From an uncultured bacterium (GTDB taxonomy: Bacteria; Krumholzibacteriota; Krumholzibacteriia; JACNKJ01), in NCBI GenBank assembly GCA_963695095.1, contig CAVOFT010000001.1, positions 2,144,001 through 2,208,000 on the forward strand: DNA of 64,000 bases, in the 5' to 3' direction. Below, piece by piece: positions 1,444 through 48,552 of the stretch. Under the pieces are notes generated by a model, which saw nothing but the letters and a program-made list of their open reading frames with translations, was not told the origin of the DNA and did not search any database. Numbering within the stretch: position 1 is the stretch's first letter; every line of letters begins with the position of its first letter. Position numbers and translations under genes: made by a program.

Positions 1444-5968
<4,525 letters not shown>

Positions 5969-5982
<14 letters not shown>

Positions 5983-8900: not shown

Positions 8901-9380
8901 ACGGTCGGCGCGCTCCCCGCCGGCGACCGAGACCCCCGGCGGCGCGGCAGCCGCGTCCGCTGCTGTCAGCTCGGCGAGCAGGTCCTGCCAGGAGCGGAAG
9001 GGCGCCAGCTCGAGACGGCGCGGCAGATTCCCCGGACGCCGCGCCGCCCGCAGGCTGAGCAGGGCGCCGGGCGCGGCCTCGCTCAGCTCGAGCAGGCCGC
9101 TCGCGGGATCGAGCCGATAGTCGCGGCCCGGCTCGAGTCGCTCGCCGTCGAGGCGGATCTCCTCGCTGCCGGGCACCAGGGCCCTTTCGCCCAGATCGAT
9201 GCGGCGCTCCTCGGGCCCCAGTCGGCGGCTGAGCTGCAGGCTCAGAAGCTCCGCGAAGGCGCCGCCCGCGAGCGAATCCGGGGCCGCCGCCTGGCCAGCG
9301 GCTGCGGCGCCCGAGTACGAGAGCGAGAGACCGCAGAGGACCAGGAGACCAAGGCGCAGGGGGGCCGGCGGCAGGTGCAT
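5969..9380 (-). CDS. Large outer-membrane beta-barrel protein (~1137 codons) with two SprA-like repeats; one-base frameshift between 8900 and 8965
   Basis: ORF from ATG 9380 (signal peptide) joins ORF 5969..8902; span 3412 nt = 3n+1; two GSE.(I/V).L.G..L..G(RE)RDY.(L/I)D...G.L.(L/F) repeats; ends RLESRAFF (beta-signal). Confidence 0.75.
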
Positions 9381-14800: not shown

Positions 14801-15225
14801 TCGACGCGCGTGAGCCAGGCGGGCAGGGTGTCGGCGGCCGCCATGAACTTGCCGTCCACCGGGATCGTGGTCAGGTCGGGACGGCGGTTCTCGCGAAAGG
14901 CGAGCAGGCAGACCATCACCCGCGCCGTGTCGGGCAGGCCGGCCCGCGCGGCCACGGCCGCCTCGGGATCGGGCAGGGCCAGGACTCGCTTCAGTCCGGC
15001 CGTGAGCGCCTCCACCTCGGCGAGGCGCTCGGCGCGCAGGCGGGCCGCCGGATCGGCGCTTGCGGGCGCTCGCTCGCCGCGGGCTCCGGCGAGGGGCAGC
15101 CAGCGCTCGCCGGCCGCGGGCCCACTCCAGGCAATGAGGATGGCGAGCGCCAGCGCCGCCGTCCCCCTGCCGAGGGCCCGGATGCCGCCGGGCCGTCCCG
15201 GAGTCCGCGCGCCGCGCTTGAGCAC
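11887..15225 (-). CDS. M6/immune inhibitor A-like metalloprotease with FG-GAP-like repeats and T9SS type A C-terminal sorting domain
   Basis: HEFGHQLDLADTY zinc motif, WDLMDSG, EYFLLENRQ, DLDGDG repeats, CTD FYPNPA...LAAGVYFGRI...RRLAVLR. Confidence 0.9.
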   Translation of the reverse strand: MLKRGARTPGRPGGIRALGRGTAALALAILIAWSGPAAGERWLPLAGARGERAPASADPAARLRAERLAEVEALTAGLKRVLALPDPEAAVAARAGLPDTARVMVCLLAFRENRRPDLTTIPVDGKFMAAADTLPAWLTRVDPPPHDAAYFDAHMRAMREFYRIQSYGRLVIDWDIVAGPAADGGLFLLPDIADYGPGEPGDFWTLELLEAFVRTAVDSIDAALQAQAGGPRFADYDHVMVFHAGSDLQNDIFGDSPNDLPSFNIFFGDPPLVDGGSRPLGSVLLLPETTTQDTDPASPVYGALNAVTAHEFGHQLDLADTYNTYWGWPSVGYWDLMDSGHQILFGFQTAEDPDNPIYVYGALPTSFAIWHRMLLGWVEAGDASLARPGGGEHEVTLTACNVQEPGGVKALRLDLSEREYFLLENRQELLFRGNRYVKRDGDTGVFQFVSKDFPAYPDSAENSGEYDLFLPQSGLLAWHVDERNFETLYPLNIINLDGDKHVSLVEADGTADLGDPYSFEWRGGDRDPFYTGNVTEWLETGVPDTRLRDGTASGFRLTELVTSPYLLSDAFVDSTISFRIARAGVPEGLPRDDREAVADVLAVLPAAGSLLPLVDGASLWLGYAMDSLDPDTLLQTHLLFSGSAANAEPPLAPQPPRRLSSTLAGSALLEAPGLGEPAWFLLTSDSLLAWGPEVAGAVPEALFGLELPAAPASLPLALLDAETASARLLWLGEDELLYLLPLSYRRGALAPGPLNALSLDPPARRGRAGVSAPLVRVETAAGTRVGVAVDDTLSLVDPFGAAATSRLGLPDPGEGPFWIRPLDLDGDGFESPDELFWIHVDGRAVTLGEEGWTPRFAAPLAGDRLSADPAVADLDGDGQPEFLLAAGDRVHRLSPEGFAYADWPLRLGELADLDPPMRLGSGLRAADMTGDGIAELILFGDSGHLIVVGASGRPLLGTPRSLAAAPVQDLISLGGQVFAISRDGFLLGFTGAATPAAPEWGAGGGGFAREGRWQRQHPIQDLANLDSEGWLFYPNPAASNCRLHHPAVPAGTRVRLELFDLEGQLKFTREAIAATDGPFEIPLELRSLAAGVYFGRIESAGKHSLRRLAVLR

Positions 15226-15237
15226 AGTGCCTCCCGG

Positions 15238-16221
15238 CTAGAAGAGCATCTCGAAGGAGAAGCGGTGGACGCGGTCCAGTCCCTTGGCCTGCGGGATATT
15301 GCCGTAGTCGAGGAAGAAGTCCTTGCCGCCCAGCTTCGTGTGGAAGCCGCCGCCGTAGGTGAACTCCTCGATGTCGCCGTCCGGGTCGTGGATGCGGCCG
15401 ATGCGCAGGGCCATGATATCCGTGTACTGCAGCTCGGTGCCGCCATTGAGCGTGGTCTGGCCGCCCGAGACCAGCAGCTTGTTGAAATCGGCGCTGAGCA
15501 GCACGTGGCCGTACTCGCTCTGATAGACGAGCCCGGCGGCGCCGACGCGGAAGAAGCGGGGCAGCGGGTCGCTCTGCTCGGCGTCGATGAAGCTGATGTT
15601 GGGACCGAAGTTCGTCAGCGCGAGGCCGGCGCTGTAGGGTCCGAAGCGGCGCAGGACGCCGAGGTCGACGGCCACCGAGCCGCCGGCGCCGTCGCCGGCA
15701 CCCGGATCGGGCACGCTGGAGGCGGGCGCCAGATCCACGCGCACGTACTTGATGCCGAGGCCGACCGCCGTGTTCTCGTCCAGGCGCACGCCGTAGCTGA
15801 GGGCGGGCGAGAACTCGTAGCTCTTGAAGGTGCCCTCGGGATCGGGGCTGTCGGTGGTCTTCACGCTCTCGCCGTAAGAGAGGTAGACGAGGCTGAGCGA
15901 GTAGGTGCCCCAGCCCTCGAGCTGCTGCACCCAGCCGGCGTACTCGTAGTAGATATCATCGGCCAGATCGGGCACGAGCTGGCTGTGCATCAGCCCCAGC
16001 GTGCGCCCCGACATGAAGCCCAGGCCGGCCGGGTTCCACCAGGCGGCCGTGGCGTCGTCCGCGAGGGCGACGCCGCTCTGCCCGAGCCCGTTGAAGCGAG
16101 CGCTCGGCGGAATCTGGAGGCTCGCCGCGCCGGCCAGGCTGGCCAGGGCGCTTCCCGTCGGCGCCGACAGGAAGAGCAAGGTCAGCAGGGTGGCAAGGGA
16201 GGCAGTGAGGGTCCGGTTCAT
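15238..16221 (-). CDS. porV: PorV/PorQ family outer membrane protein (T9SS shuttle)
   Basis: LQIPPSARFNGLG..VALADDATAAWWNPAGL motif, LTNFGPNISF..QSDPLP, HRFSFEMLF; GGAGG RBS; adjacent to porU. Confidence 0.88.
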   Translation of the reverse strand: MNRTLTASLATLLTLLFLSAPTGSALASLAGAASLQIPPSARFNGLGQSGVALADDATAAWWNPAGLGFMSGRTLGLMHSQLVPDLADDIYYEYAGWVQQLEGWGTYSLSLVYLSYGESVKTTDSPDPEGTFKSYEFSPALSYGVRLDENTAVGLGIKYVRVDLAPASSVPDPGAGDGAGGSVAVDLGVLRRFGPYSAGLALTNFGPNISFIDAEQSDPLPRFFRVGAAGLVYQSEYGHVLLSADFNKLLVSGGQTTLNGGTELQYTDIMALRIGRIHDPDGDIEEFTYGGGFHTKLGGKDFFLDYGNIPQAKGLDRVHRFSFEMLF

Positions 16222-16254
16222 GCAGGTCGTCCTCCAAAAGGGTTGATATCGCAC

Positions 16255-16284
16255 AATATAGGCTCCTCGGCGGGCAGGGGTCAA
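16255..16284 (-). promoter_or_regulatory. Internal sigma70-type promoter for porV and downstream genes
   Basis: TTGACC-18 bp-TATATT. Confidence 0.6.
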
Positions 16285-16286
16285 GG

Positions 16287-19200
16287 TCACTCCCGCATGC
16301 GCACGAGGGCGCCGGTCTGCTCACGACGCCGCGCGGCATTGTCCGCGTAGGTCGCCACGAGGCGGTACAAGTAGGTGCCGTTCGCCACTTCGTCACCGAC
16401 GGCATCCCGGCCGTCCCAGTCGAGAGCGTAGCGGCCCGGCTCCGGGCAGTCCCGCTCGAGGCGCCGCAGGCGCCGCCCCGAGACGGTGTACAGATCCAGA
16501 CTCACTCGGCCCGGAGCGGTGAGTTCGAAGCTGATCGCGCAGTGGCCGCGGAAGGGGTTCGGGAAGGGCTGCACCGCGACCAGATCGGCTCGGCCCGCCT
16601 CGAAGAGCTCCACGCGCAGGGTGTCGCGGCCCACGTTGCCCAGATTGTCGGCCACGGAGGCGACGAGGGTGTTGCGCCCCGCCGGCAGGCTCGCCGGCAG
16701 GAGGGCCGCCACGCTGCCGGCGGTGGCGCTGCCCAGCTCGTACTCGAAGCGATCGGTGAGATTGTCGATCTGGCCCGTCTCGACGAACTCGACGAAGATG
16801 GCATTCTGCGGATGCGCCCCCACCAGGTTGATGCCCGAACTTGCGGCGGCGCTCAGCGTGTAGCCGCTGCCCGGCGTGGCGTGGGTGGCCCCGCCGGCCA
16901 GGGCCAGGGCGACCGTGGGCGCCTCGCCGGCCGGCGGCAGGATGCCGGGCAGCACGGCAAGGGAGTCCAGCACGCCCACGGCCGCTTCGTCCGTGGCCGG
17001 GCTCACCGCATAGGCGCGGACGCGGCCGTAGCTGCCGAGCGCGGAGTCCGGCAGCCCGGGCACGAAGCAGGCCGGCGTCTCGAAGCGGCCGTCGCGCACC
17101 TGCACCCGCCCGCGGAAGATCTCCGGGCCGAGCAGGTGGTAGTCGACATGCACCGTGCCGCCGCCGTAGAGGGGCCGCTCGAAGCCGCTGGTGTCCGCCG
17201 AGGCGCGCACGCTCAGGTCGAGCTCGCCGTTGAAGTCCGGCGCCAGCAGGCCCTCGCGTAGAATCCGGCCGCTGAGCGCCAGGGTGCCGCCGACCTTGAG
17301 CGTGTCCGCGCCGCCCGGCGCAAGCTCCACGCTCAGACGCGGGGTCAGCAGGGCCAGCGAGGGATCGCCGAGAATGGCGTAGCGCTCGTTGTTGGGACCC
17401 TGGTTCTGGGCGTAGTCGACCCTCTGCACGCGCACCTTGGCCCGGAGCAGCGCGGCGCCGACCGGCACGCGGGCGCCGATCTCACCTCCCGGGAAGAGCT
17501 CGGCGAGGAAGTTGCGGTTGAGCACGTTGTTGAAGCCCGCCGTCGACAGGTCGCTGGATGCCATCGTGGCAATGGCGCCGCCCTGGGCGAGGCCGACCAT
17601 CTCCTCGCTCATGCTCCGGCCCTGCGTGTCGTCGAACTTGCCCACGTTGCAGGAGGCGGAGATGAACAGGTAGCGCCGGTTGCCGTTGGCGAGGGAGGCC
17701 AGGCGCGTCGAGAGCAGCAGCTGCTCGTCGGAGAGCACGTCGTTGCCGCCGTGGCCGACGTAGTTGAAGATGAGCACCCCCGCATCGAGCGCCTGGAAGA
17801 GGGCGTTCTGCGGCGCCGGCTTGAAGCCCGCGTAGTCGCAGTCCCACTCGCACATGTAGATCTTTTCGATGTCGAGCACGGGCGGAATGGCGCGCGCGAC
17901 GAGCACCTCGGCCTGTCCGGTATGGTCGATGGTGTCGATGTCGTCGCACTGCTTCGTGTAGTCGTCGGTGGCCAGCACCATGCGGTTGCGCCAGGCGCCG
18001 GCCGGAGCGTCGCGTTCGTAGCCGATGACGGCATCCACCATCTGCTCGGCCGCCGCGGCGGATGCGGCCGGCAGCCGGCCCACCGCGAGATCGGGGATGG
18101 CCAGGCGCAGCGAGTCGTCCTCCTCGTCCATGTAGGCGAAGTAGTCGTCGGTCGTGTAGGCGTAGCTCGCCTGCTCGATGCGGAAGCGGTCGCTGAGGGC
18201 CGGCACGAGTGCGTTGCTGACGTCGCCGCGCACTTCGCGGCCGAGGAAGTTGCGATAATCAGTGCTCGCATCGCCGAGCAGGAGCACGTAGGTCAGGCGG
18301 CTCGCCGGCGCCTCGTAGCGGTACTTGAGGAAGTTGCGCAGAGCGGCCGGATCCTGCATGCCGCTGCCGAAGTTCGCGTAGATGTCGCCGATGCCCACCA
18401 CCTCCACCTCGCCCTGGCCGAGCAGGGGGAAGTGCCCACGGCGCCAGGCGGCGTAGCGCTGGGCGGCACTCATGAAGCCGCTGTCGCCGGCTCCATCGAG
18501 CTTGCCGTCGAAGGCGACCACGATCATGTGCGGCGTCGCGTCGTGGCGCAGCGGCGTCGGACTCTGCGCGAGCAGGCGCACGGGACTGCGGTAGTTGACC
18601 GGGGCCGCGGGATCCACCAGCCAGAGGCGGCGGCGCTGGGCCGTGTCCACCCCGAGGACGAGGCTGTCCCCCGCCCAGACGCCGCCCGTCAGCAGCGCCG
18701 GCGCGAGCGGATCGCTGAGGTCCCAGACATCGGGCGGATGGGCCCAGCCGCTGGCCGCGACGCGCGCCCTCGCCTGCGTGGCCGGTACGTGGAGCTCCAG
18801 GGGCGCCGAGCCGCGGCTGCGCGCGCGCGTTGCGTAGAAGAGCTCGTACCAGAGCAGCCAGCCGAAATCGTTCGCCAGGCCCAGCGGCGGATCCCGCGGC
18901 AGGCGCAGCGTGAAGCGGGCCTGGGCGTCGCCCTCGAGGTCGGCCGGCAGGGGCAGCGTGCCCTCGACGACGGCCATGCTGAGCGAACTCGTGATGCTGA
19001 TGCTTGCGTCGACGAAGCGGTGCGTCGGATCGCTGGGATCCGCCCCCGTGCCCGCCGGCGTGATGAAGCCCTGCAGGTGATGCGGCCCGCTCAGGCCGTT
19101 CCGGCGATCCGCGTCGAAGCCGATGCGCAGCCGCGCCGGCTCGCCGGCGGCGGGCCAGGCAAAGGCGAAGTTCTCGGCGAAGCTCGTGGGGCCATCGCCG

Positions 19201-20249
19201 GGAAAGAAGTAGCTCCAGGCCCAGCCGTCCTCGTGCAGCTCCTCGGAGGAGTACTCGGCGTTCTCCTCGCGGTGGAGTCGCGCCGGAAACACGGCCAGCG
19301 GCGTCTCGTCGCCCTGGGGCGCCGCATCGCGACCGGCCACGCGCAGACCGGCGCCGCCGCCCCAGGTGAGGTAGTAGGTGGCCCAGCCCGTGTAGGGATT
19401 GCGCAGGTAGCTCTGGAAGTCGGCGCCGGCGACGACCTCGTCGCGGAAGCCGTCCACGCCCGGCAGGTAGGCGATCAACTCGGTGTTCGGATTCAGGGTC
19501 GTCCCGCCCTTGACGAGCAGGGGCAGTTCCTGCGGCTGCCAGCCCCGCTCCCAGGAGCCCCCGGGCCAGTCGAGACGGAAGGGCTGCGGCCGACCGCCGC
19601 TGCCCAGGAGCCGAAAGCTCGCGAGCTCGATGCCGGGAGCGATGCCGGCGCTGACGAGATCGGCGTAGCGCAGCCGGTACAGGCCGCCGGCCCGCAGGTC
19701 CAGGCGCAGCCAGCGGCCGCTGCCGTCGAAGATCTCGTCGCCCTCTCGAGATCCGGCGCCCCGGGCGAGAGCGGCTCCTCCGGCCGGCGCGGCGACGGCG
19801 TTCACGAGCAGCCCCGCGAGCAGGGGATCCGCGTTCGGGCCTGGGCTCGTGGCCGGCAGCGTGGCGTCGAAGGCCAGGCGGATTTCGGCCTCGCGCCAGG
19901 CGCCCGCGGGCGGCAGGAAACGCAGGCGGCCCACGCGCTGGCGCCGGTAGACTGCCGGCGGGGCGAGGGCGAGGTGGACATCCACCGCGACCGCAGCGCC
20001 GTCGATGCGCAGACCCTCGGCGCGCCAGCCGCCCTGGTCGGGCAGCGCGACGACCAGATCCAGCGGCTCGCCCGCAGCAGCGCCAGGCGCGGCCCTCAAG
20101 GTGAGGCGTGCGCTGCGCCCCTCGCCCTGCCAGCTGAAATCGGCGGCCACGGCGGCCACGGCGGGCCGGCCGGCGGAGAGGTGGATGCTGAGCGCCAGCA
20201 GGAGCGGCGTCCAGGGGAGCAGCCGGCGGCTGGGCTCAGTCGTTCGCAT
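16287..20249 (-). CDS. porU: T9SS sortase PorU (gingipain C25 family) with C-terminal FlgD-Ig/CTD
   Basis: IYANFGSGMQDPAALRNFLKY, YVLLLGDASTD, DLAVGRLP, NYVGHG and SCNVGKFD His/Cys dyad, ILGDP, PFPNPF...WDGRD...VANGTYLYRL. Confidence 0.92.
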   Translation of the reverse strand: MRTTEPSRRLLPWTPLLLALSIHLSAGRPAVAAVAADFSWQGEGRSARLTLRAAPGAAAGEPLDLVVALPDQGGWRAEGLRIDGAAVAVDVHLALAPPAVYRRQRVGRLRFLPPAGAWREAEIRLAFDATLPATSPGPNADPLLAGLLVNAVAAPAGGAALARGAGSREGDEIFDGSGRWLRLDLRAGGLYRLRYADLVSAGIAPGIELASFRLLGSGGRPQPFRLDWPGGSWERGWQPQELPLLVKGGTTLNPNTELIAYLPGVDGFRDEVVAGADFQSYLRNPYTGWATYYLTWGGGAGLRVAGRDAAPQGDETPLAVFPARLHREENAEYSSEELHEDGWAWSYFFPGDGPTSFAENFAFAWPAAGEPARLRIGFDADRRNGLSGPHHLQGFITPAGTGADPSDPTHRFVDASISITSSLSMAVVEGTLPLPADLEGDAQARFTLRLPRDPPLGLANDFGWLLWYELFYATRARSRGSAPLELHVPATQARARVAASGWAHPPDVWDLSDPLAPALLTGGVWAGDSLVLGVDTAQRRRLWLVDPAAPVNYRSPVRLLAQSPTPLRHDATPHMIVVAFDGKLDGAGDSGFMSAAQRYAAWRRGHFPLLGQGEVEVVGIGDIYANFGSGMQDPAALRNFLKYRYEAPASRLTYVLLLGDASTDYRNFLGREVRGDVSNALVPALSDRFRIEQASYAYTTDDYFAYMDEEDDSLRLAIPDLAVGRLPAASAAAAEQMVDAVIGYERDAPAGAWRNRMVLATDDYTKQCDDIDTIDHTGQAEVLVARAIPPVLDIEKIYMCEWDCDYAGFKPAPQNALFQALDAGVLIFNYVGHGGNDVLSDEQLLLSTRLASLANGNRRYLFISASCNVGKFDDTQGRSMSEEMVGLAQGGAIATMASSDLSTAGFNNVLNRNFLAELFPGGEIGARVPVGAALLRAKVRVQRVDYAQNQGPNNERYAILGDPSLALLTPRLSVELAPGGADTLKVGGTLALSGRILREGLLAPDFNGELDLSVRASADTSGFERPLYGGGTVHVDYHLLGPEIFRGRVQVRDGRFETPACFVPGLPDSALGSYGRVRAYAVSPATDEAAVGVLDSLAVLPGILPPAGEAPTVALALAGGATHATPGSGYTLSAAASSGINLVGAHPQNAIFVEFVETGQIDNLTDRFEYELGSATAGSVAALLPASLPAGRNTLVASVADNLGNVGRDTLRVELFEAGRADLVAVQPFPNPFRGHCAISFELTAPGRVSLDLYTVSGRRLRRLERDCPEPGRYALDWDGRDAVGDEVANGTYLYRLVATYADNAARRREQTGALVRMRE

Positions 20250-22462: not shown

Positions 22463-23551
22463 TCAAGGTAGGAACTTCTCCGTGTGCGCCAGCTTGCGCG
22501 GCAGGTACTCGTCGATGACGTAGTTGAGGCCGTGCTTGGCCAGGGCCTGCTGCTCCGCGCGCACGCCCATGCCGATCATCTGCGTGATCGCCTTCTGCCA
22601 CTGCTTGTAGTGCTGCACGAAGGGATCGTTCTTGAGCGCATCCTTGGCGCGCTTGACGTCCACGTCCTTCAGCGGGTGCGTCGGCAGCTCGTAGTCGATG
22701 ATATCCTGGGGCGTGATGCCGAGAAAGCGCGCCTGGGGCACGCAGAAGTACTCGTTCAGATGCGCCGCGTTCCCGCTGCCCACCTTCAGCGTGCGGTAGA
22801 TGTTGCTGATCCCGTAGGGGTCCCCGTCCACGAAGACGTAGACGGGCAGGCCTTTCTCGTCCGCCAGGCGGCGGATGAAGCGGCGGCAGGCGCGCGTGGG
22901 CACGCCGCCCATGCTGACCAGGATGCAGCGCGCTGTCTGCCAGTAGCCGTGCTTGACCAGGCGCTGGAACATGCCGGCCGTCTCGATGGCGAGGATGAAG
23001 GTGGCCTTCGTCTCGAAGCCGAGGTGCTCCACGCTGTTGGGAATCGAGTAGGCGCCGCTGCCGAACTTGGTGCAGTCGATGCGCAGCTTCTTGCCCGAGG
23101 CCGGATCGCGGTCGATCACCACCAGCGCGCCCGCGACCTCGCCGCCCTTCTCCTCGGGGATGAAGCCGAGCTGTTCGCGATTGACGCCGAAGAGCGCCTC
23201 GACGTCGTCCATCACCGTGTCGCTCTCGGGCTGCTCGTGGAAGCGCGCCTCGCCCCAGTTCTTGGAGACGTAGTAGGCCTCTCGCTTGGTGGCGATGTCG
23301 TCGGACTCGACGAGCTGCTTGGACAGGGCCATCATCTTCAGGGTCTGGGCGAAGGACTTCACCGTGCTCACGGTGAGCGTGCGCTCCTTGCGCGCGGCCT
23401 TCATCGTGAAGTGGCCGCGCGCGGCATCGTAGCGCACGTTGCCCAGGCTGCGGATGGGGAAGCGCAGGGTGGGCTTGCCGCCGGCGGCGGCGCTCTTCTC
23501 CACCAGGCGCGCCTGCTCCTTGATCTTCTTGACGACGGGTCCAGCGGCCAC
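22463..23551 (-). CDS. top6A: DNA topoisomerase VI subunit A (Spo11 homologue)
   Basis: TKREAYY catalytic Tyr, QPESDTVMDDVE, TOPRIM ILAIETAG and FVDGDPYG, AEQQAL. Confidence 0.95.
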   Translation of the reverse strand: MAAGPVVKKIKEQARLVEKSAAAGGKPTLRFPIRSLGNVRYDAARGHFTMKAARKERTLTVSTVKSFAQTLKMMALSKQLVESDDIATKREAYYVSKNWGEARFHEQPESDTVMDDVEALFGVNREQLGFIPEEKGGEVAGALVVIDRDPASGKKLRIDCTKFGSGAYSIPNSVEHLGFETKATFILAIETAGMFQRLVKHGYWQTARCILVSMGGVPTRACRRFIRRLADEKGLPVYVFVDGDPYGISNIYRTLKVGSGNAAHLNEYFCVPQARFLGITPQDIIDYELPTHPLKDVDVKRAKDALKNDPFVQHYKQWQKAITQMIGMGVRAEQQALAKHGLNYVIDEYLPRKLAHTEKFLP

Positions 23552-23554
23552 GGC

Positions 23555-25326
23555 CTACACCTTCCGGCTGCGTTCGAGGGTGTCGCTGAGCCGCTCGACG
23601 ATCTGCTGCTCGCGCGCTTCGCTGAGGCCCAGGATCTCGCGCAGGGCCTCGCCGATGTGGGGAATGTAGCTCTTGATGTAGTCGGACTTCTGGCGCGCAT
23701 CGGCCAGGCGCTTGCCGCGGCGGATGTGCCCGCCGAGGCGACGGCCGCAATCCTGCAAAGCGAGGCGGATCTCCGCAGGATCTCGGGGTAGCTCGCCACC
23801 GCCTCCTTGCTCTCGCTGGTGAAGGGCACCCAGGCGCTGGCGATGTGCACGGTGACGACCAGCGGCCCCGCCGGCAGCGCGCCCTTGCTCTGGCTGAGGC
23901 CGTAGTTCTTCCAGCCCGCGCCCACGACGCTCTTGGTGATGGCGCAGGCGCCCTGCTGGTACTGCAGCGGCACCCGGTTGGCGAAGCGGTGCAGGAGCGC
24001 CAGTTCGTCGGCGCCCATCCCCTCGACGCCCCAGGCCAGCGCCGCCTCGACGAGGAAGGGATTGCCGCGGTAGACGGCGGGCTTGCGGCTGACGGCCGTG
24101 AAGAACTCGGCCGTCACCACCTTGCGCAGGCCGGCCTCCAGCTCGACGGCGCCGATCGGCGACAGGCAATTGGTGGGCGGCGCCATGATCTTGGTGCCGG
24201 CGATGCCGTGCAGGAGCTGCTCGGCCTGGTCGCGGCCGAGGCTGCCGGGCTTCGCCTGCGGGCGCAGCATGGCGTGACCGGCGATCTCGTCGGCCACCTT
24301 CGCGCCCACGCGGCTGAACTCGTCCTGCAGGAAGGCATGCAGCGTGCGGCTCTTCGTCTGCTCGAGCATGCTCATGAGAATGCCCAGCTCGACGCCGTAG
24401 GGATGGGGCTTGATCGCCTGCGCCTCGTGGGGCAGGGCCTCCGTGACGCGCGGGTACTGGATCTCCTCGCCGCCGGGCTCGCGATAGCTGAGGTCCAGAT
24501 GCGGATTGGCCACCGCGGTGAGGGCGAGGTAATCGTCCACGCTGCGGCGGCCGCGCTTGTGGATGGCCTCGAGCTCGATCTCCACCCGGGTGCCGTGGGG
24601 CGCGTCCCAGTCCACCACCTCGTCGACGGCGATGATGGGCTCGTTCTTCTGGGTGTTGATCTTCACCTCGAAGCGGTGCGCGTCGGCCTTGGGCGCCGTG
24701 CGGCTCGTGATGCGCACCGGCTTGCCCGTGGTGAGCTGGCCGTACATGCCCGCGGCGCTGATGCCGATGCCCTGCTGACCGCGGCTCTGCTTGAGCGTGT
24801 GGAACTTGGAGCCGTAGAGCAGCTTGCCGAAGATCCGCGGAATCTGCGCGCGCACGATGCCCGGGCCGTTGTCCTGGACGACGACGCGGAAGCGCTCCTC
24901 GCCCACCTGATGGGCCTCCACGCGCAGCGAGGGCAGGATGCCGGCCTCCTCGCAGGCGTCGAGGCTGTTGTCCACCGCCTCCTTGATCGTGGTGAGCAGG
25001 GCCTTGCTCGGGTTGTCGAAGCCGAGCAGGTGGCGGTTCTTCGTGAAGAACTCGCTGATCGAGATCTCGCGCTGCTTCTTGGCCTGCGCCTCGGCGCTGC
25101 CGCCCGCGCGCCGCCCCGCCGCGCGACTGGGACGGCGCTGCCCGCCGCCCTGGTCAGCGGCCGCGCCGCGGGCGGCGCCCGCTGCCGGCCCCGCCGTCGC
25201 CGCCGGGGCGATCTCGGCTGCCGGCCCGCTCTCGGCCGGCGCTTCGGCGAGGGCGGAGGCCGCCCCCGCCTCCTTCGCGGCGAAGAGGTCGCCGGTACCC
25301 GACTTGCTGCGCTTCTGCGTGGCCAT
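23555..25326 (-). CDS. top6B: DNA topoisomerase VI subunit B; one-base deletion frameshift near 23773
   Basis: EISISEFF, KEAVDNSLDA, DNGPG, KLLYGSKF, QSRGQQGIGIS, RFANRVPL, PFTSESKEA; YPEIL continues as EIRLALQDCGRRL in the adjacent frame; span 1772 nt = 3n+2. Confidence 0.93.
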
Positions 25327-25366
25327 GCGACTCCCTGCTGGCGGCGGCATCCCCGTTGCGGGCGGC

Positions 25367-40083: not shown

Positions 40084-40599
40084 CTACTCGCTCGCGACGC
40101 GCAGGTAGCGGCGCGGCTTGGCGGTCGCGTTGCCGAAGCCCCGCAGGGTGTCCTGCGCCACGCGGGCAAGGAGGCTGCTCCTCGCCGTGCCGCCTGCCGT
40201 GGGCGAGCAGCCCTCGGGCAGGGGCCCGCTCACCCAGATCGCGAAGCCCTCGTCCGCAAGCTGCCAGTCGCTGCGCGTAAGCGGCGGCGTACCTTCGGCC
40301 GCGAGCGCGCCATAGCCGAGGCAGATGCCCGTCACACGCACGGTCAGGCCGACCAGGCTCGAGTCCGCGAGGATTTCCCGCACGCTGGCCGTACGAAGTG
40401 CGGTGTGTTCGACCAGCCCGGGCGCGGGTGCTGCGACGCTTGCCGGAGCCTTCACCTCGATCGGCGCCGCCGGCGCCGGCGCGGCCAAGGCAGTGTCACC
40501 GGTCGCGAGTTCGCCGTGCTCCCTCTCCGCGGCAGGCTCGTCCTTGCAGGACAGGCCGGCGACGGCGCAGGCCGCCGCCAGCACGATCAGCGCGCGCAT
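40084..40599 (-). CDS. Hypothetical lipoprotein (possible OB-fold)
   Basis: Lipobox AGLSC; SVREILAD..LVGLTVRVTG; TGATG coupling with the clostripain stop. Confidence 0.7.
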   Translation of the reverse strand: MRALIVLAAACAVAGLSCKDEPAAEREHGELATGDTALAAPAPAAPIEVKAPASVAAPAPGLVEHTALRTASVREILADSSLVGLTVRVTGICLGYGALAAEGTPPLTRSDWQLADEGFAIWVSGPLPEGCSPTAGGTARSSLLARVAQDTLRGFGNATAKPRRYLRVASE

Positions 40600-42884
40600 C
40601 AGTGCCCCCTCCCGTTCAGCATCGCACGCAGGCCCGCCATGTCGGCTTGCCGCGGCGCTTCCCAGCCGAGATCCCGGTGCTCCTTCACGATCGCCCGCGC
40701 CCTGGCCAACTGCAGCGCCGTTGGGCGCGCCAAGGGCCCGGCCGGAGCGGCCGCGGACGACTCGGGCCGCGCCGCTATCAGCTCCCGCGGGGCGCGCCGT
40801 GGACTCACGTTCATGCTGGCCGCCCACTGCAGGTCGCTGTAGGCGCCGGCGTCCACCTCCTCCCAGGTCGGCGTGGGATCATCCTCCCATGAGAAGTCCC
40901 GCGTGAGTACCGGAAAGTTCGGCGCGTAGAGCGAGTGCAAGTCGTCGGTCTGATCGGCGCGCCAGAGAATGTCGTACTCCGGCCCGAAGTCGAAGGGGTC
41001 CGTGTAGAGATTCGCGTAGAAGCGGTACTCGCCCGGCTGGATGTAGCGGTTCGTGAAGTAGCCCTCGAAGGCCACCTGGTCGGTGTAGGAATCGGCAGTG
41101 AAGTGCCCGTTCGGTGTCACGCTGCCAAGGTAGGGAATGTAGAGCTCGCCGTCGGGCTCGATCACCCACAGATCGATATCCGCGTTCTGGTTGATGGCAG
41201 CGGGATCCCAGGCCAGATAGACCTCCACCCGCTGATCGCCCTGATCGACGTAGTCCAAGGGCAGCTGGCCGCTATCGTTCAGCCAGGCGGCGAGGAACGC
41301 TGACCAGGCCGCGCCGGGCAGCAGAGCAGAATAAGCCGCGAAGCTGCGCGGTCCCTCGTCGGCGAACTGGTCACCTCCGCTGCCGGCCGGCAAGACGACG
41401 CTGAGGCCATGCGAGTCGCCGACCTCGCTGGCGTCGGCTTCCGTGCCGGTGCGGGCGTGATTGCGCAGTCGGAAGGTACCTGTGACCTGGCTGCGCAGCG
41501 CGGCAATCTGGCTCTGGATCGTCGCGTCCGCGATCATGGGGGCCAGCGTATCGAGAAAGTCGACCAGGTCCTTGATCTCGAGCATCGCGTAGGCCTGTGT
41601 CTGGGGAATCGCGGCGCCGAGCGCGCCGCCGAGGTCGCCGATGCCGGCCGTGAGGCTCGTCGCCAGCGCGTCCAGCGCCGCCGCGAAGGCAGCGTAGCCC
41701 GCCATGTCGAAGGCGGAGATCGTGGTCGATGCGCGATCACCGTTATAGGCGGCGTGGAACTCGTCGGCGATCACCGCCGCCGCCGCGGCCGGGCCCATGG
41801 CGCTGTTCGCCTGCATGGCGGCAAGGATCTCGGTGTAGGGATTCCCGTCCCCGGGCACCACCTCCTCGGAGAAGACCACGTAGTCCGCGTAGCCCGGCAG
41901 CAGCGCCAGCGTCTCGTAGGCGCCCATCAGGCACATGTCGAAGTCGAGGATGTCCACCCCACCCGCAGCCGCCAGCGCCCCGGGGAGATCGCCTAGCGCC
42001 ATCAGATCCGTTGCCGAACTCTGATCCTCGATGAGGCCGACATAGCCCCCGCCGTGATTCCAGAGGACGAGACAGTAGTGCTCCGCCGGGTACTCGTCCT
42101 TCGCCCAGTTGACGAACTCAGCCAGCTGCGCCGGATCGGTCATGTCCCGATTGCCGATGTCCGTGGCGTCGCCATTGGGCCCGTAGCTCTCTGAACCCTC
42201 CCCCCTGTAGGCGTAGCGGAAGGTGTTCCAGTTCGGACGGTTGAAGCAGCTCGGGTCGCCGCAACCCGCCTGCGCCAGCGCGGTGGGACTGAACTCCGCC
42301 TGCACGAGCACCTGCACGTCCGCATCGAAGCCCGCCGCCTCCATCTCGTCGATGTCGAGAATGCCAGCCACGGCCAGGGTGTTGTCCGCGGCCATGTACA
42401 CCATGACGGTCCACCGCCGCAGACGCGCGGTGGCGGTCAGCGTCGTGCTCAATTCGGGATGGCCGACCACCGTCGCCGTCAGCGTGTTCGTTCCCTGGTC
42501 CAGGCCCAGGATCCACTGGCCCGGTGAGGCAATGCCGCTGGTGTTCGTGCCCTGCTGGGCGCTCGCAATCGCGCCACCGCCGCCAGCAACCGCGAAGCTG
42601 ACCTGGATACCCGGCACCGGATCTCCCTCCGCGTCGGTGACCCGGAAGGCGGGGTTGATGGCCAGGGCGCCGCCCGTGGGCGCGCTCTGGCCGGCGCCGG
42701 CCTGCACGGCGATCGCTGCCGGTGTCGTGCCAGGCGTCTGTGTTCCGGTCGGGCTCGAATCGCCCGAGCAGCCGCTGAGAGCTGCAATCGCGAATAGCAC
42801 CGGCGGCAGGACGAGCGCGGCCAGTCGGGAGGGCAAAGCTGCGGCGCAGATCGCCGACGCGCTCCGGACACGGAATACAGCCAT
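40599..42884 (-). CDS. Clostripain (C11)-family cysteine peptidase lipoprotein with N-terminal Ig-like and C-terminal YfaP-like domains
   Basis: Lipobox LSGC; WTVMVYMAADN, YPAEHYCLVLWNHGGG, FDMCLMG; ADIDLWVIEPDG. Confidence 0.9.
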   Translation of the reverse strand: MAVFRVRSASAICAAALPSRLAALVLPPVLFAIAALSGCSGDSSPTGTQTPGTTPAAIAVQAGAGQSAPTGGALAINPAFRVTDAEGDPVPGIQVSFAVAGGGGAIASAQQGTNTSGIASPGQWILGLDQGTNTLTATVVGHPELSTTLTATARLRRWTVMVYMAADNTLAVAGILDIDEMEAAGFDADVQVLVQAEFSPTALAQAGCGDPSCFNRPNWNTFRYAYRGEGSESYGPNGDATDIGNRDMTDPAQLAEFVNWAKDEYPAEHYCLVLWNHGGGYVGLIEDQSSATDLMALGDLPGALAAAGGVDILDFDMCLMGAYETLALLPGYADYVVFSEEVVPGDGNPYTEILAAMQANSAMGPAAAAAVIADEFHAAYNGDRASTTISAFDMAGYAAFAAALDALATSLTAGIGDLGGALGAAIPQTQAYAMLEIKDLVDFLDTLAPMIADATIQSQIAALRSQVTGTFRLRNHARTGTEADASEVGDSHGLSVVLPAGSGGDQFADEGPRSFAAYSALLPGAAWSAFLAAWLNDSGQLPLDYVDQGDQRVEVYLAWDPAAINQNADIDLWVIEPDGELYIPYLGSVTPNGHFTADSYTDQVAFEGYFTNRYIQPGEYRFYANLYTDPFDFGPEYDILWRADQTDDLHSLYAPNFPVLTRDFSWEDDPTPTWEEVDAGAYSDLQWAASMNVSPRRAPRELIAARPESSAAAPAGPLARPTALQLARARAIVKEHRDLGWEAPRQADMAGLRAMLNGRGH

Positions 42885-42975
42885 TGGCGGCAACCCCTTT
42901 CATCGCGGAAATGGGGCGCACCGCCAGCGTTTGGCCGTGCCCCGCGCGGCATTGGGAGCGAGCCGAGCGCGCGCG

Positions 42976-43004
42976 ATCCTAGTGGAGACCTCGCTGCATT
43001 TCAA
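42976..43004 (-). promoter_or_regulatory. sigma70-type promoter for clostripain gene
   Basis: TTGAAA-17 bp-TAGGAT. Confidence 0.6.
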
Positions 43005-43037
43005 CTGATCAAATCAAGGGTAGCCGCAGTTCTGGAT

Positions 43038-43058
43038 TTCCAAGACAGCTATTTGGAA
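43038..43058. promoter_or_regulatory. Candidate operator TTCCAA-N9-TTGGAA in AT-rich patch upstream of the clostripain promoter
   Basis: Inverted repeat in a locally AT-rich stretch. Confidence 0.4.
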
Positions 43059-43075
43059 TTCATCTACGATGCGGC

Positions 43076-44737
43076 TCAGCGGCCGCGCAGGCGCAGGGCC
43101 GGCGGCGGCAGCATCCCCTGGCGGGCCGGCTGCCCGGCGGCGGCCGGCTGCCAGTAGCGCCCGGCCGCGCTCGCCGCCTTGGCGGCCTCGGGGACCAGCG
43201 GGTGCTGCGCGGCCCAGGCGTCCTGGCGCGCGCCCGTCACCTGCCAGCAGACCTTCAGGCCCGGCCTGCCGCCGGCGATCCGGAAGCGGCCGTCGGCGAT
43301 CTCGCTGGCCACGTAGACCGGTGCATGGCCGCCCACGCAGGTGAGCTGGTAGCGGAAGTCGCCGCTCAGCGCCGTCGTCCAGGCGGGCAGTTCCACCCAG
43401 GCGCTGCCCGTCGCATCGAGCAGGACGCTGCCGTCGTAGACGCTCTTCATCTCGTCGCTCTGGACGAGCGCCTGCGTGAGCGTCATCGTCGCCGGCGCCA
43501 GCGGATGGTCGATGCGCGTGGCCAGACCGGCCGAGTAGACGTAGCCGTCCACCTGGATGTCGCCCAGGAAGTAGCCGGCGTAGTTGGCCGTGCCGCCGTC
43601 CGCGTAGCCCAGGATGCCGACGTTGACCTCGGGACCCTGGGCGTCGCCCGTGGCGCCATAGGCGAAGCCGCCCGCGCCGCTGGTGGCCTGGCCGTAGGCG
43701 CCGTAGTACTCGCCGTTGCTCGCGCCCTCGCTGAGCGCCCAGGCGCCCACGTACCCGCCCAGGAACTGCCCACCCACGCCGTAGGCCTCGCTGGGCACGG
43801 CGATGCCCTCGACGCCGATGTAGTCGATCTGCCCCGTGGCGGTCACCTCGCCGAGGATGGCGTCCCCCGCTGCCGCACTGGCGACGAAGAGGCGGTCCGG
43901 GCTCGCGGTACCGAGGCCGATCGCGCTGCCGCTCTGGAACAGGGCCGAGTTGCCCAGGGCCGTCGCGCCCGTGAAGCGCGGCAGGTAGTTCAGCGTGCCG
44001 CTGCCCGTCAGGCCCCCGCCGGCGCCGCTCGCCGCGATGGTGATCGTGTTCGCCGCATCGTCGGCGGTGATCGTCACGTTCGCGCCGGCGACGAGATCGA
44101 TGTTGCCGCCGTCGTTCGTCACGCCATCGAGGCTGGACACGATGGCGGGCCCGATGTCGGCGGCGCTCACCGCGCCGTCGGCGATGGCCGCCGAGGTGAC
44201 GGCGCCCGCCGCCAGCTTGGCCGCGCTGACCGCGCCGTCGGCGAGCTTGGCCGCGCTCACGGCGCTGTCGGCAAGCTTGGCCGTCGTCACGGCGCCATCC
44301 TGGATGGCCGCCGTGTCCACGGCGCCCGGGCCGAGCCCACCCGTGGACAGGGCCACGTCGGCAGTGGCGGCGTGGAAGGCATAGGCGGTGGTGCCGAGCG
44401 GGATGGCCGCCAGTTCCTCGCCGCCGACCGTGAGCACGAGGGCGCGCTCGCCGCCGGCGATGAAGGCGCCGGCCGGCATCGGCGCCTGGCCGCCGCCGTC
44501 GTTAGCGCCCAGCATCAGGCTGATCACGCCGTCCACCGGCGTCACCACGTAGATGGCGCTCCAGAGCGTGGCGCCCAGGCCGTCGCGCAGGCTGAAGGTG
44601 ACCGGCGTGCCGGCGGCGATCGGCTCGCCCGCCGCATCGGTGAGGATGCCCTGGAAGGGCATCGTGCTCGGCGTGGTCGCCGCCGCGGGCAGGGCCGTCA
44701 GCAGGAGGCCGAGGGCAACGAGGATGCGCGCGTTCAT
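43076..44737 (-). CDS. Secreted fibre/tail-fibre-like protein with decapeptide and Gly-rich repeats
   Basis: Signal peptide, PSTMPFQGILTDAAG N-domain, AYAFHA linker, GAV..AKLAD repeats, G.x.G.A repeats, C-terminal IDHPL...FRYQLT...V.WQVTG domain; GGAGG RBS. Confidence 0.8.
   Translation of the reverse strand: MNARILVALGLLLTALPAAATTPSTMPFQGILTDAAGEPIAAGTPVTFSLRDGLGATLWSAIYVVTPVDGVISLMLGANDGGGQAPMPAGAFIAGGERALVLTVGGEELAAIPLGTTAYAFHAATADVALSTGGLGPGAVDTAAIQDGAVTTAKLADSAVSAAKLADGAVSAAKLAAGAVTSAAIADGAVSAADIGPAIVSSLDGVTNDGGNIDLVAGANVTITADDAANTITIAASGAGGGLTGSGTLNYLPRFTGATALGNSALFQSGSAIGLGTASPDRLFVASAAAGDAILGEVTATGQIDYIGVEGIAVPSEAYGVGGQFLGGYVGAWALSEGASNGEYYGAYGQATSGAGGFAYGATGDAQGPEVNVGILGYADGGTANYAGYFLGDIQVDGYVYSAGLATRIDHPLAPATMTLTQALVQSDEMKSVYDGSVLLDATGSAWVELPAWTTALSGDFRYQLTCVGGHAPVYVASEIADGRFRIAGGRPGLKVCWQVTGARQDAWAAQHPLVPEAAKAASAAGRYWQPAAAGQPARQGMLPPPALRLRGR
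44147..44326 (-). repeat. Six imperfect 30-bp (10-aa) tandem repeats within the fibre-like gene
   Basis: GAVDTAAIQD GAVTTAKLAD SAVSAAKLAD GAVSAAKLAA GAVTSAAIAD GAVSAADIGP. Confidence 0.85.
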
Positions 44738-44806
44738 CAGTACCTCCGCGGCCGGCTGAGTCGCCGGTCCGAGACATCGCGCGCCCGCGGCGCGCGGGGA
44801 TGCGGA

Positions 44807-46684
44807 TCAGTGCAGCAGCACCAGCTTGCGCACGGCGACGAGGCCCGGCGCCTCGGCGCGAATGAAGTAGACGCCGGCGGCCACCGGCGCGCCGCGCTCG
44901 TCCTCGCCGCGCCAGGTGAAGCGGGCCAGGCCCGGCGCGACGGGTCCCTCGTGCAGGCGGCGGACGAGGCGCCCCTGCACGTCGTAGATGCGCAGCAGCA
45001 CGGTGCCCGCCCGCGGCGCGGCGAGCGCGATCACCGTGCCCTCCGCGCGGCGGCTGGGATTCGGCAGCGCCGGCCAGAGCGCGAAGCCGTCCAGGCCGGC
45101 GGCGAACTCCGCGGCGATGGCCATGCGCTCGGTGGCGAGGTAGGCGGCTCCGCCGGCGAGCAGGTGCCAGCGGCGCGTGCCGCCGCCGGTGGGCAGCCTG
45201 CCCGCGAGCAAGGGCGCGCCCAGCAGCTCCTGCTCGCTCAGCGTGCGGGCGTCCACGGCCAGGAGGGACCAGCCCGGCGGCAGTTCGCCGTCGAGCAGGC
45301 AGTCCACGCGGTAGCCCGCGCCAGCCTGGTCCGCGTCAAGCTGCAGGCTCCAGCGCTCGCCGGCTGAGGCGAGCGCGCGGTAGTCCGTGGCCAGGCGGCT
45401 GCCGGCGGGGTCCAGCCAGGCCAGGCTGAGATAGCCCCGGGGCGGCGAGGGCGGCTCGCCGTAGTCGAAAGCGTCGCGCTGGGCCGTGGCCCCGCTGCGC
45501 TGGCCGCAGCGCGCGCGGGCCGTGCCCACGGAACCCGTCGTCGCGCGCAGCTGCAGGCTCCAGCCGGGCTCACCCGGCGGGCGGGCGGGCGCGGGCAAGG
45601 GCGGAGCCGGCGGCATCTCCTGCGGGCTCACCGGGACCTGGAGCACGAGCGGGCCCGTTCCCCGGTTTTCCACCCAGTAGCCTTCACCGGGCGCAAGCGC
45701 CGTCAACCCGCCGCCGGCCGCGTCCACGTAGTCGGCCAGGGCGCTGGGGCGATAGGCATGGAGATTGTGCGGCTGGCCGTCGCTGTAGCGCAGGCCGGCC
45801 ACGGCGACGGGAAAGGCGAAGGGACTGGCAATGGCGTTCCAGCCGGGTGCCAGGCTGAGCTCCAGGTCGGCGCTCAGCTCGGCGCTGCGCCCATCGAGGG
45901 TCACGAAGGCCGCCTGCGCGCTGCTCAGCCAGAAGCCGCGGCCCGGGGCGAGCGCCGCCGCGGCCGGTCCCTCGCGGTAGGCGCCGGTCGCCGTCTCGTA
46001 GGTGAAGAGCTGCCAGCGCGGCGCGCCGTAGTCCCCGAGGGGCTCGCCGAAGATCAACGCGGGATCGCCGCTGGCCGGCGCGAGCGGCAGGCCGAGGAAG
46101 TAGCTGCGCGGGTTATCCCCGAGCGCGAAGGCTTCGTGGTCGGCCACGGGGACGGCGAAGCTCCCGTGCCCCGCGGCGGGCGCCCCCGCGGGCAGGCGCA
46201 GCGCAAAGGGCGGATCGGCGACCTCGATGAAGTACTGGATCCCGCGCGCGCCCAGCAGCTCGGCAGGGAGCTGCGCGCTCCAGGCCTGCCCGCCGCCTGC
46301 CGGCTGCATGGCGAGCTGGGCGTAGCCCAGCTCCCCGCCGCGGCGATGGAAGAGCGTGGCCGCGCTCACGCCCTCGGCCAGCTCGAGGCGCAGCGCGCCG
46401 AGCTGCCCGTCCACGCCCTCGCTGAGCGAGATCACGCGGGGCGCGCCGAACTCGCTGCCGACGAGCAGGCCCGCGCCGCCGCCGGGAGCCGACCAGGCTC
46501 CGCCGCCGGCGGGTTGGCCCAGGCAGAGCAGCAGACGGTACCGGGCACTGGCTGCGTAGCCGCCCGCGGCGGGCAGCGCGACGCGGGCAGCGCCCGCGGC
46601 CAGCGGCCAGGAAGCGACCAGCAGCAGGGCAATCCCTGGCCAGTGGCGCCGGCGCGGGACGGGGACGGTCGCGCAAACTCGCAT
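44807..46684 (-). CDS. Secreted protein with T9SS type A/FlgD-Ig C-terminal domain
   Basis: Signal peptide; APGRGFWL, LAPGWNAIASPF, APGEGYWV; CTD LPNPS...IYDVQGRLVRRL...WRGED...VAAGVYF...RKLVLLH; start uncertain. Confidence 0.8.
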   Translation of the reverse strand: MRVCATVPVPRRRHWPGIALLLVASWPLAAGAARVALPAAGGYAASARYRLLLCLGQPAGGGAWSAPGGGAGLLVGSEFGAPRVISLSEGVDGQLGALRLELAEGVSAATLFHRRGGELGYAQLAMQPAGGGQAWSAQLPAELLGARGIQYFIEVADPPFALRLPAGAPAAGHGSFAVPVADHEAFALGDNPRSYFLGLPLAPASGDPALIFGEPLGDYGAPRWQLFTYETATGAYREGPAAAALAPGRGFWLSSAQAAFVTLDGRSAELSADLELSLAPGWNAIASPFAFPVAVAGLRYSDGQPHNLHAYRPSALADYVDAAGGGLTALAPGEGYWVENRGTGPLVLQVPVSPQEMPPAPPLPAPARPPGEPGWSLQLRATTGSVGTARARCGQRSGATAQRDAFDYGEPPSPPRGYLSLAWLDPAGSRLATDYRALASAGERWSLQLDADQAGAGYRVDCLLDGELPPGWSLLAVDARTLSEQELLGAPLLAGRLPTGGGTRRWHLLAGGAAYLATERMAIAAEFAAGLDGFALWPALPNPSRRAEGTVIALAAPRAGTVLLRIYDVQGRLVRRLHEGPVAPGLARFTWRGEDERGAPVAAGVYFIRAEAPGLVAVRKLVLLH

Positions 46685-46797
46685 CGCGGGCGGGACTCCT
46701 GGGCTCGGGGATCCACCGGTAGCCGCCCAGCAAGCCGCGCGCCGTTCGGAGCGCGGAAGCGCCGGGACAGGCAGCGGGCGGCGCATTGCAGCAATGG

Positions 46798-46829
46798 AAA
46801 GCCCGGCCCCCTGTCGGGGACCGGGCTCG
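46798..46829 (-). terminator. Rho-independent terminator of groESL
   Basis: GCCCGG(T)CCCC...GGGG(G)CCGGGC stem followed by TTTCC just after the groEL stop. Confidence 0.75.
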
Positions 46830-46851
46830 ATCGAGGCGAGTGGACGGAAGC

Positions 46852-48552
<1,701 letters not shown>

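Follow-up and report, generated by a model that had tools for sequence, protein, structure and literature searches.

The window analysed here is a 64,000-nucleotide stretch (G+C content about 72%) from the genome of an uncultured bacterium of the phylum Krumholzibacteriota (GenBank assembly GCA_963695095.1, contig CAVOFT010000001.1, positions 2,144,001 to 2,208,000). Directly downstream of groES-groEL it contains two minus-strand genes, which encode a partner protein (P0002) and a fibre protein (P0001). The genes are 69 nt apart, and the spacer has a GGAGG ahead of the fibre ATG; no terminator-like site was found within positions 42500-47200, including the region between both genes. Because of this spacing and the lack of a terminator-like site, the pair probably forms one transcript. 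An earlier note, made from the letters of the sequence, had described at this place a cargo protein of a type IX secretion system (T9SS) next to a fibre-like protein, and had suggested that the fibre is exported or anchored by piggy-backing on the cargo. Both genes and every element it had listed are present where it had placed them. The analysis reported here shows that the two genes form a genuine and conserved module, as yet without a name, in which a short N-terminal motif of the partner accompanies the N-terminal domain (N-domain) of the fibre.

P0002 starts with MRVCA, as do its orthologues, and residues 15-24 within its signal peptide are helical in the AlphaFold 2 model. The signal peptide is followed by a Gly-rich motif, which was aligned with 14 other motif proteins; the motif has the consensus ..L.W.TIDGGG..S.GG.Y.L.GTIGQPDAG..SGG.Y.L.GGFW, the P0002 copy being a degenerate form. 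It includes AAGGYAASARYRLLLCLGQPAGG (residues 39-61), which had been quoted earlier as the mature N-terminus, and three of its glycines (G56, G61 and G72) are invariant within the P0002 family. Apart from a weak match to PamT, which is described below, there is no curated Pfam or NCBIfam model for the motif. The motif region retrieved only unnamed clusters from the ESM Atlas (scores ≤0.84) and 26 matches in a word-based homologue search, all of them unnamed and four with a dockerin. The model of P0002 is all-beta (mean predicted local distance difference test, pLDDT, 84.3; predicted template modelling score 0.79) and consists of a chain of beta-sandwiches ending in the T9SS C-terminal sorting domain (CTD); Foldseek with the body gave generic multi-immunoglobulin (Ig) matches only. 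Judged from this model, P0002 looks like a stalk bearing a flexible N-terminal motif. PF13860 (FlgD_ig, cut-off 27) recognises the CTD with 40.9 bits and E 2e-10; the TIGR04183 score of 22.7 bits is slightly below the cut-off of 23. Seven close orthologues with 68-72% identity were found by a word-based search. An exhaustive search showed that residues of about 100-624 constitute a module of about 520 amino acids, with 334 representatives at E ≤ 1e-30, which many larger proteins have at their C-terminal end; it also revealed a family of proteins of about 600-630 amino acids that are co-linear with P0002 from the signal peptide onward and in which the Gly-rich N-terminus is conserved.

P0001 begins with a stretch that by eye resembles a signal peptide, which ends in AAA ahead of TTP. 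No CTD was detected in it by Pfam or NCBIfam, and it is not among the 135 matches that the P0002 CTD region has in the 3.64-Mb genome. The N-domain, which contains PSTMPFQGILTDAAG, the decapeptide repeats (Tandem Repeats Finder: 30-nt period, 4.6 copies, 44159-44296), a Gly-rich stretch and the C-terminal domain (C-domain) with the pattern IDHPL...YQLT...WQVTG are all present as described earlier. In the AlphaFold 2 monomer model (mean pLDDT 63.9) the N- and C-domains are confident and the shaft is poor, which is to be expected when a fibre is modelled as a monomer. Block means of pLDDT are 74-89 over residues 21-110 and mostly 70-94 over residues 401-510, where a single block (421-430) is low. 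A fold search with the N-domain gave generic Ig-like matches only, with Z of about 6.6 or less and no specific kinship. The CTDs of PorU (6za2_B) and mirolase (8qb1_A), both with Z 6.3, are among these matches and indistinguishable from the others.

The C-domain has clearer relatives. Its residues 431-502 align structurally with the distal C-terminal domain in the tailspike of cyanophage Pam1 (7eea_A; Z 9.6, root-mean-square deviation 2.0, 68 aligned residues; VIA-align), and further fold matches are a K64-1 depolymerase (Z 7.6), a K1 lyase (7.0), the R2 pyocin fibre (6.6) and AP22 gp53 (6.5). The likeness to the distal domains of tailspikes and tail fibres that had been proposed for this domain is thus substantiated; the likeness to chaperones is not. 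With the full fibre model, the best Foldseek match in the PDB is weak (E 1.4e-3), and the predicted viral structures of BFVD that match it are minor tail and tail-fibre proteins. In a sequence search of the PDB the repeat region alone was matched (9eg4_H orf16, E 0.0076; 4v1j), with nothing for the N- or C-domain, and a tblastn search of P0001 against 50,697 phage records gave no match. Since the structural matches to phage fibres come without any sequence match in phage genomes, P0001 is a cellular, phage-fibre-like protein. Its C-domain is the probable distal binding tip, and by its resemblance to trimeric phage fibres P0001 is probably trimeric. The family is large: among 8000 candidates scored, 798 homologues were found at E ≤ 0.001, and 625 relatives occur in one-genome-per-species contigs. 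The relatives' metagenome-assembled genomes (MAGs) are labelled as Eisenbacteria, Ignavibacteria, Bacteroidota, Planctomycetota, Acidobacteriota, Chloroflexota and deltaproteobacteria. Neither Pfam nor NCBIfam has a family for the N- or C-domain of P0001, and in eight further fibres they recognised nothing beyond repeats.

Table 1. Features of the partner and fibre genes and of the T9SS genes in the window (HMM, hidden Markov model; ORF, open reading frame).
Feature	Position	Strand	Residues	Basis or remark
P0002, partner gene	44807..46684	-	625 aa	ORF and translation: signal peptide, motif, Ig-like stalk, T9SS CTD
P0002 signal peptide	46589..46684	-	1-32	by eye; cleavage guessed after AGA
P0002 N-terminal four-strand Gly-rich motif	46439..46588	-	33-82	about 50 residues; motif HMM, E 6e-10 and 4.5e-9
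P0002 body (stalk)	45065..46435	-	about 84-540	chain of beta-sandwich (Ig-like) domains
P0002 T9SS type A CTD	44810..45064	-	541-625	PF13860 FlgD_ig, TIGR04183
Spacer between P0002 and P0001 genes	44738..44806	-		
P0001, fibre gene	43076..44737	-	553 aa	ORF and translation; CTD-less
P0001 N-domain	44387..44674	-	22-117	beta-sandwich right after signal peptide; N-domain HMM, E 2.3e-21
P0001 decapeptide repeats (six)	44144..44323	-	139-198	PHROG 892 tail fiber, E 5.7e-15; PHROG 28766, E 1.1e-10
P0001 C-domain	43178..43528	-	about 404-520	C-domain HMM, E 1.5e-66
porV and porU (T9SS shuttle and sortase)	15241..20249	-		next to each other, some 23 kb away from the pair

The genome that carries the pair has a T9SS. 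PorV (PF19572, E 4.2e-20) and PorU (Peptidase_C25, E 4.3e-78, plus FlgD_ig; NF033707 T9SS_sortase, 438 bits against a cut-off of 420) are encoded in the window, and SprA is encoded elsewhere in the genome (TIGR04189, over the cut-off). The gene that precedes porV and porU (11890-15225) codes for a 1112-amino-acid M6-like/FG-GAP protein. With about 135 FlgD_ig/T9SS-type CTD matches in 3.64 Mb, the predicted T9SS secretome of this bacterium is unusually large.

The HMM of the motif detected four ORFs in the whole genome: P0002, a protein at a second locus (L012), a small motif-plus-CTD protein at a third (L093) and one orphan. The HMM of the N-domain detected exactly three loci, namely the window, L012 and L093, and all three are adjoined by a gene for a motif protein with a CTD. 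Because there are only four motif ORFs in 3.64 Mb and three of them adjoin the only three N-domain loci, this pairing cannot reasonably be due to chance, by a rough estimate. At L012 a second fibre paralogue is followed by the gene of a small protein consisting of a signal peptide, the motif in the form GGG..Y.I...VGQ...GFW, a short linker and a T9SS CTD. At L093 two genes for N-domain proteins lie behind the small motif-plus-CTD gene, and the C-terminal tips of these proteins are other than that of P0001. These tandem proteins (4735-6420 and 6444-8084 of the locus, plus strand) share a central stretch of about 190 residues that is apparently identical, while both ends differ, which suggests a recent duplication or gene conversion with divergence of tip and N-terminus. 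The orphan ORF (locus L094) has a canonical motif followed by an FN3-like segment ending in ..RFYRLFNP, with an IS91-like transposase gene alongside, and has the appearance of a partner gene that was transferred or has decayed.

The association was also examined in the reverse direction, starting from the motif, in 121 genomes of the own phylum; related genomes are not independent, so that the counts describe rather than test. With the motif model 65 of these genomes were positive, and 106 matches were listed. At 26 of the best 30 motif loci a fibre domain is located within 1.5 kb (the N-domain at 25, the C-domain at one). The earlier note had mentioned, as unverified, that proteins of the type GG.S....Y.L...GQP occur next to such fibre genes, and this holds for the three loci of the own genome as well as for these 26. 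A single N-domain query was positive in 67 of the 121 genomes. An N-domain match lies within 3 kb of 75 of the 106 listed motif matches, 74 times on the same strand and 61 times with the motif gene lying upstream of it, which is the order seen in the window, and the distances between motif and N-domain cluster at 350-780 bp. The adjacency of both N-terminal domains, proposed as a check of the idea, is thus observed. Conversely, the motif lies within 3 kb of 82 of the 150 N-domain matches listed, many fibres being arranged in tandem arrays behind one partner. When the lists of motif-positive and N-domain-positive genomes are compared by hand, 58 genomes have both elements, seven the motif only, nine the N-domain only and 47 neither; several of the motif-only genomes do have a divergent N-domain beside the motif according to the HMM.

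As a control, the phylum was searched with P0002 minus its CTD, which gave 26 loci with the stalk module. In six of them (the own gene, L125, L126, L127, L132 and L140) the signal peptide is followed by a motif-type N-terminus, seen by the HMM in four and by eye in the other two. In the flanks examined, an N-domain gene adjoins all six stalk loci with the motif and none of the 20 without it; these 20 include an own paralogue (L146) and larger proteins ending in the stalk. It is thus the motif that accompanies the fibre, rather than the stalk or the CTD, and the 6/6 against 0/20 distribution identifies the motif as the travelling part.

A set spanning several phyla was compiled by retrieving 79 loci (1.13 Mb) via the fibre C-domain. 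Altogether, 24 motif ORFs were found in 22 of these loci, all on the strand of the fibre gene and 21 of them not more than 300 bp away from it. Where at least 1 kb of sequence was available on both sides, 17 of 52 loci had a motif ORF. The motif is present at 19 of the 47 loci whose fibre has the N-domain, at one of the 22 without the N-domain and at two of the 10 in which the N-terminus is cut by the contig end, showing that the motif tracks the N-domain and not the IDHPL C-domain. The one motif locus among these 22 (L066) had been considered an exception, with a C-domain fibre and a partner but no N-domain; this proved to be an artefact, the 5′ end of the fibre gene being masked by a run of N.

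What follows the motif differs between lineages. All 29 motif proteins scanned in the own phylum end in a T9SS CTD. In MAGs of Planctomycetota, Chloroflexota and deltaproteobacteria the motif is followed by a dockerin or by other modules: Pfam Dockerin_1 is over its cut-off at L048, L059 and L066 (MAGs of Planctomycetales, Chloroflexia and deltaproteobacteria) and below the cut-off yet with E <0.05 at L014 and L023, and L027 has EF-hand-type Ca-binding matches only. Other small domains follow in Anaerolineae, Caldilineales and Kouleothrix, and at L054 the motif precedes BNR repeats plus a CTD. At L066 the gene next to the dockerin partner encodes a cohesin (Cohesin, E 5e-20). This protein (11162-12754 of the locus, plus strand) contains two cohesin stretches, PKD/Ig domains and a dockerin of its own, and it is possible that it is the scaffold that receives the partner of the fibre.

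Motif and N-domain also occur in matching variants. Among 25 own-phylum loci with an N-domain match, 13 have motif scores of at least 56.2 bits; at 12 of these 13 the N-domain is divergent (E 1e-7 to 1e-12), and at the thirteenth (L108) it is canonical. At all 12 loci with lower motif scores it is canonical (E ≤ 1e-26). Each class is represented by one pair in the own genome, and the pair of the window is a third kind. These classes fit partner-specific recognition, and linkage alone could also maintain them. The distal ends of the fibres are mosaic. In 20 own-phylum loci, which were picked for having an adjacent pair and are thus no test of adjacency, 21 N-domain fibres fall into five unrelated tail clusters; none has the IDHPL domain, and one cluster ends in Peptidase_S74 (L151, E 6.5e-10, 39.6 bits against a cut-off of 22).

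Chromosomal phage-fibre-like adhesins, the mosaic adhesive trimer (MAT) fibres, are widespread. P0001 and its family resemble them in having a signal peptide, a conserved beta-rich N-domain, a shaft and interchangeable tips, S74 members included, and in being chromosomal rather than phage-borne; the likeness is one of architecture. All 21 MATs of Bdellovibrio bacteriovorus have a beta-rich domain of about 130 amino acids right after the signal peptide, which 'would presumably tightly bind' a surface element yet to be identified, and the PDB contains MAT tips only (Caulton et al., 2024; PMC10769870). Unlike here, the parts of that paper concerned with this domain describe no partner gene and leave the anchor open. 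The host differs as well, being a high-GC, T9SS-bearing bacterium that is not a predator as far as known. With the tailspikes and tail fibres of phages (PHROG 892, PHROG 28766; 7eea; R2 pyocin fibre 6cl6), P0001 has in common the decapeptide shaft repeats and a distal C-terminal beta-sandwich of the same fold (Z 9.6 to 6.5). It differs from them by its Sec signal peptide, by the lack of a sequence match in the phage records, by its location outside a phage or tailocin tail module and by its N-terminal attachment, which would be to a cellular partner and not to a baseplate.

P0002 in turn corresponds to T9SS type A cargo of the gingipain type, with its CTD and with PorU, PorV and SprA in the genome; unlike usual cargo, it appears to hold a second, CTD-less protein. 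In the non-T9SS lineages, where the motif protein ends in a dockerin and at L066 is adjacent to a cohesin protein, the system resembles cohesin-dockerin surface proteins, from which P0002 differs by using the T9SS CTD. A further lead concerns PamT, which the preprint of Troman et al. (2026; PMC13278184) presents in its account of the Pam pilus of the candidate phyla radiation (CPR) as the predicted tip pilin, together with a tail-fibre-like protein that co-localises with pam operons. Four of 12 partner proteins weakly match the start of the PamT model (NCBIfam NF058579; best E 1e-7, profile positions of about 8-84 of 241), as do two of 21 motif-only segments (best E 1.6e-6). Every score falls well short of the cut-off of 240 bits, the partners reaching 31.6 at most, and P0002 itself has no match; unlike PamT, the partners have no Ig-like pilin domain after the motif and no chaperone-usher-like genes nearby. 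Going by these sequence scores, we regard the resemblance as a lead, not as membership. Literature searches, which included motif strings and tail fiber-like proteins with type IX secretion, returned no description of the pair, one tailocin mini-review having been judged by its title and the opening of its abstract; the earlier note's view that the module is undescribed agrees with this. T9SS co-export was not found with the hitch-hiking and piggyback terms searched, judged mostly by title; in one of the papers these terms concern twin-arginine (Tat) translocation and peroxisomal import.

Taken together, we consider it probable, at roughly 0.6, that the pair constitutes a two-piece cell-surface appendage, in which a T9SS-anchored P0002 stalk docks the N-domain of the fibre with its motif and the C-domain of the fibre binds a target. 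It is established that type A CTD cargo is exported by the T9SS and that PorU exchanges the CTD for a lipid-linked surface anchor. P0002 would accordingly pass through the T9SS by means of its CTD and be attached by PorU, leaving the Ig-like stalk on the surface with the free four-strand motif pointing away from the cell. P0001, a CTD-less and probably trimeric fibre of the MAT type, would dock onto this motif with its N-domain, in a stoichiometry that is as conjectural as the binding itself, and the tail-fibre-tip-like C-domain would form the distal end. Having a Sec signal only and no CTD, P0001 should need help across the outer membrane of a diderm cell. Crossing it bound to P0002 would be the simplest route in T9SS lineages, a step that we purely infer. 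Because the same pair occurs in lineages without T9SS, the core function of the motif would be docking and not T9SS targeting: it may be a portable socket for the N-domain that is set before the anchor of each lineage, be it a T9SS CTD, a dockerin or another module. The earlier idea was therefore right in substance, as fibre and anchoring partner are a conserved functional pair, and too narrow in mechanism, as the pairing extends beyond T9SS lineages. Where the partner bears a CTD, export by piggy-backing would be a special outcome of a general role in anchoring or docking.

Several observations speak against this interpretation. Contact between P0001 and P0002 is putative; a 1:1 complex prediction of the N-domain (residues 21-128) with the P0002 motif (33-92) scored 0.07 against a mark of 0.32, the fold of the partner being itself uncertain, and counts neither for nor against such contact. 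The motif region has low confidence in the P0002 monomer model (pLDDT <50; residues 26-80). Motif and fibre are fused in none of the 59 motif ORFs, so that there is no Rosetta-stone support. Partners are also absent from many loci, with no motif gene within 10 kb at 28 of the 47 N-domain-positive fibre loci of other phyla and nine of 121 own-phylum genomes having the N-domain but no motif with the queries used; because of these cases the fibre can evidently exist without an adjacent partner. In the opposite direction, four of the best 30 motif loci (the own orphan, L097, L110 and L123) have no fibre gene within 1.5 kb, and the orphan ORF (G000:C1:461258-461722, plus strand) is without a start codon. 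The phylum counts overstate the statistical weight owing to the relatedness of the genomes, and a dockerin anchors only where a surface cohesin is given, for which one locus was checked.

Part of the evidence could be read differently. Adjacency and N-domain specificity are likewise expected of an assembly or export helper whose motif binds the N-domain transiently, in the periplasm for trimerisation or else for T9SS carriage, and then releases the fibre, free or attached elsewhere; dedicated helper genes often lie beside those of phage tail fibres, and in the P0002 model the motif by itself is without structure. A transient helper would, however, need neither the display or attachment module that the partner always has (the CTD 29/29 in the own phylum, a dockerin elsewhere) nor the long Ig-like stalk of P0002, and the C-terminal tip is where the chaperones of phage fibres act, whereas the motif goes with the N-domain whatever the tip is. 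We regard such a helper as unlikely. The operon-like arrangement would also suit two co-regulated but physically independent surface proteins, either two adhesins or a partner that shields or regulates target recognition by the fibre without docking it, and the docking interface is, as said, putative. Yet in at least five phyla the adjacency has been kept with everything in the partner exchanged except the 50-residue motif, which alone is conserved; inside a single phylum, different classes of the motif go with different classes of the N-domain, and stalk-plus-CTD homologues that lack the motif are never found beside fibres (0/20). Independence of the two proteins is in our view decidedly unlikely.

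A remnant of a prophage or tailocin, in which a tail fibre and an accessory gene have no cellular role, is suggested by the PHROG matches of the repeats and by the tailspike-like fold of the C-domain. This reading was rejected for lack of any match of P0001 in the phage records; moreover, the genes flanking the pair, groES-groEL and a C11 peptidase gene, include no phage genes, both proteins have Sec-type signal peptides and the partner carries bacterial surface-sorting modules. It is very improbable. The docking of a MAT-type fibre on an anchored stalk can, on the other hand, be extended: the motif might be a universal socket for MAT-type N-domains, including those of Bdellovibrio, whose anchor was left open, a CTD-less fibre in T9SS lineages might reach the surface only via SprA while bound to its partner, and PamT might start with the same socket. 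We put forward this wider proposal tentatively and consider it doubtful. If true, a T9SS would for the first time be seen to secrete a hitch-hiker, and were PamT to begin with this socket, the tip of CPR Pam pili would bear an adhesin that resembles a tail fibre.

Two of the three fibre loci in the own genome are flanked by genes for clan CD cysteine peptidases. In the window, a C11 clostripain-like lipoprotein is encoded just downstream of the pair (40599-42893, minus strand; own promoter-like site at 43004-42976), and at L012 a C25 gingipain-like CTD protein is encoded just upstream of the fibre (7947-10220, minus strand). This may be a coincidence or reflect a role in processing. Elsewhere in the window, the genes for topoisomerase VI subunits A and B are adjacent (22466-25350, minus strand; TP6A_N/Toprim and Topo-VIb transducer); in bacteria topoisomerase VI is a less typical enzyme than in archaea and plants.

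For fibres whose attachment to the cell is left open by the published MAT work, the motif, being short and easy to recognise, is a concrete and testable anchor candidate, and it also offers a rule by which fibre systems of this kind can be located in uncultured bacteria. The module could serve as a natural two-piece surface-display system. For organisms with a T9SS it raises the question of whether a second protein can be exported while bound to a CTD cargo.

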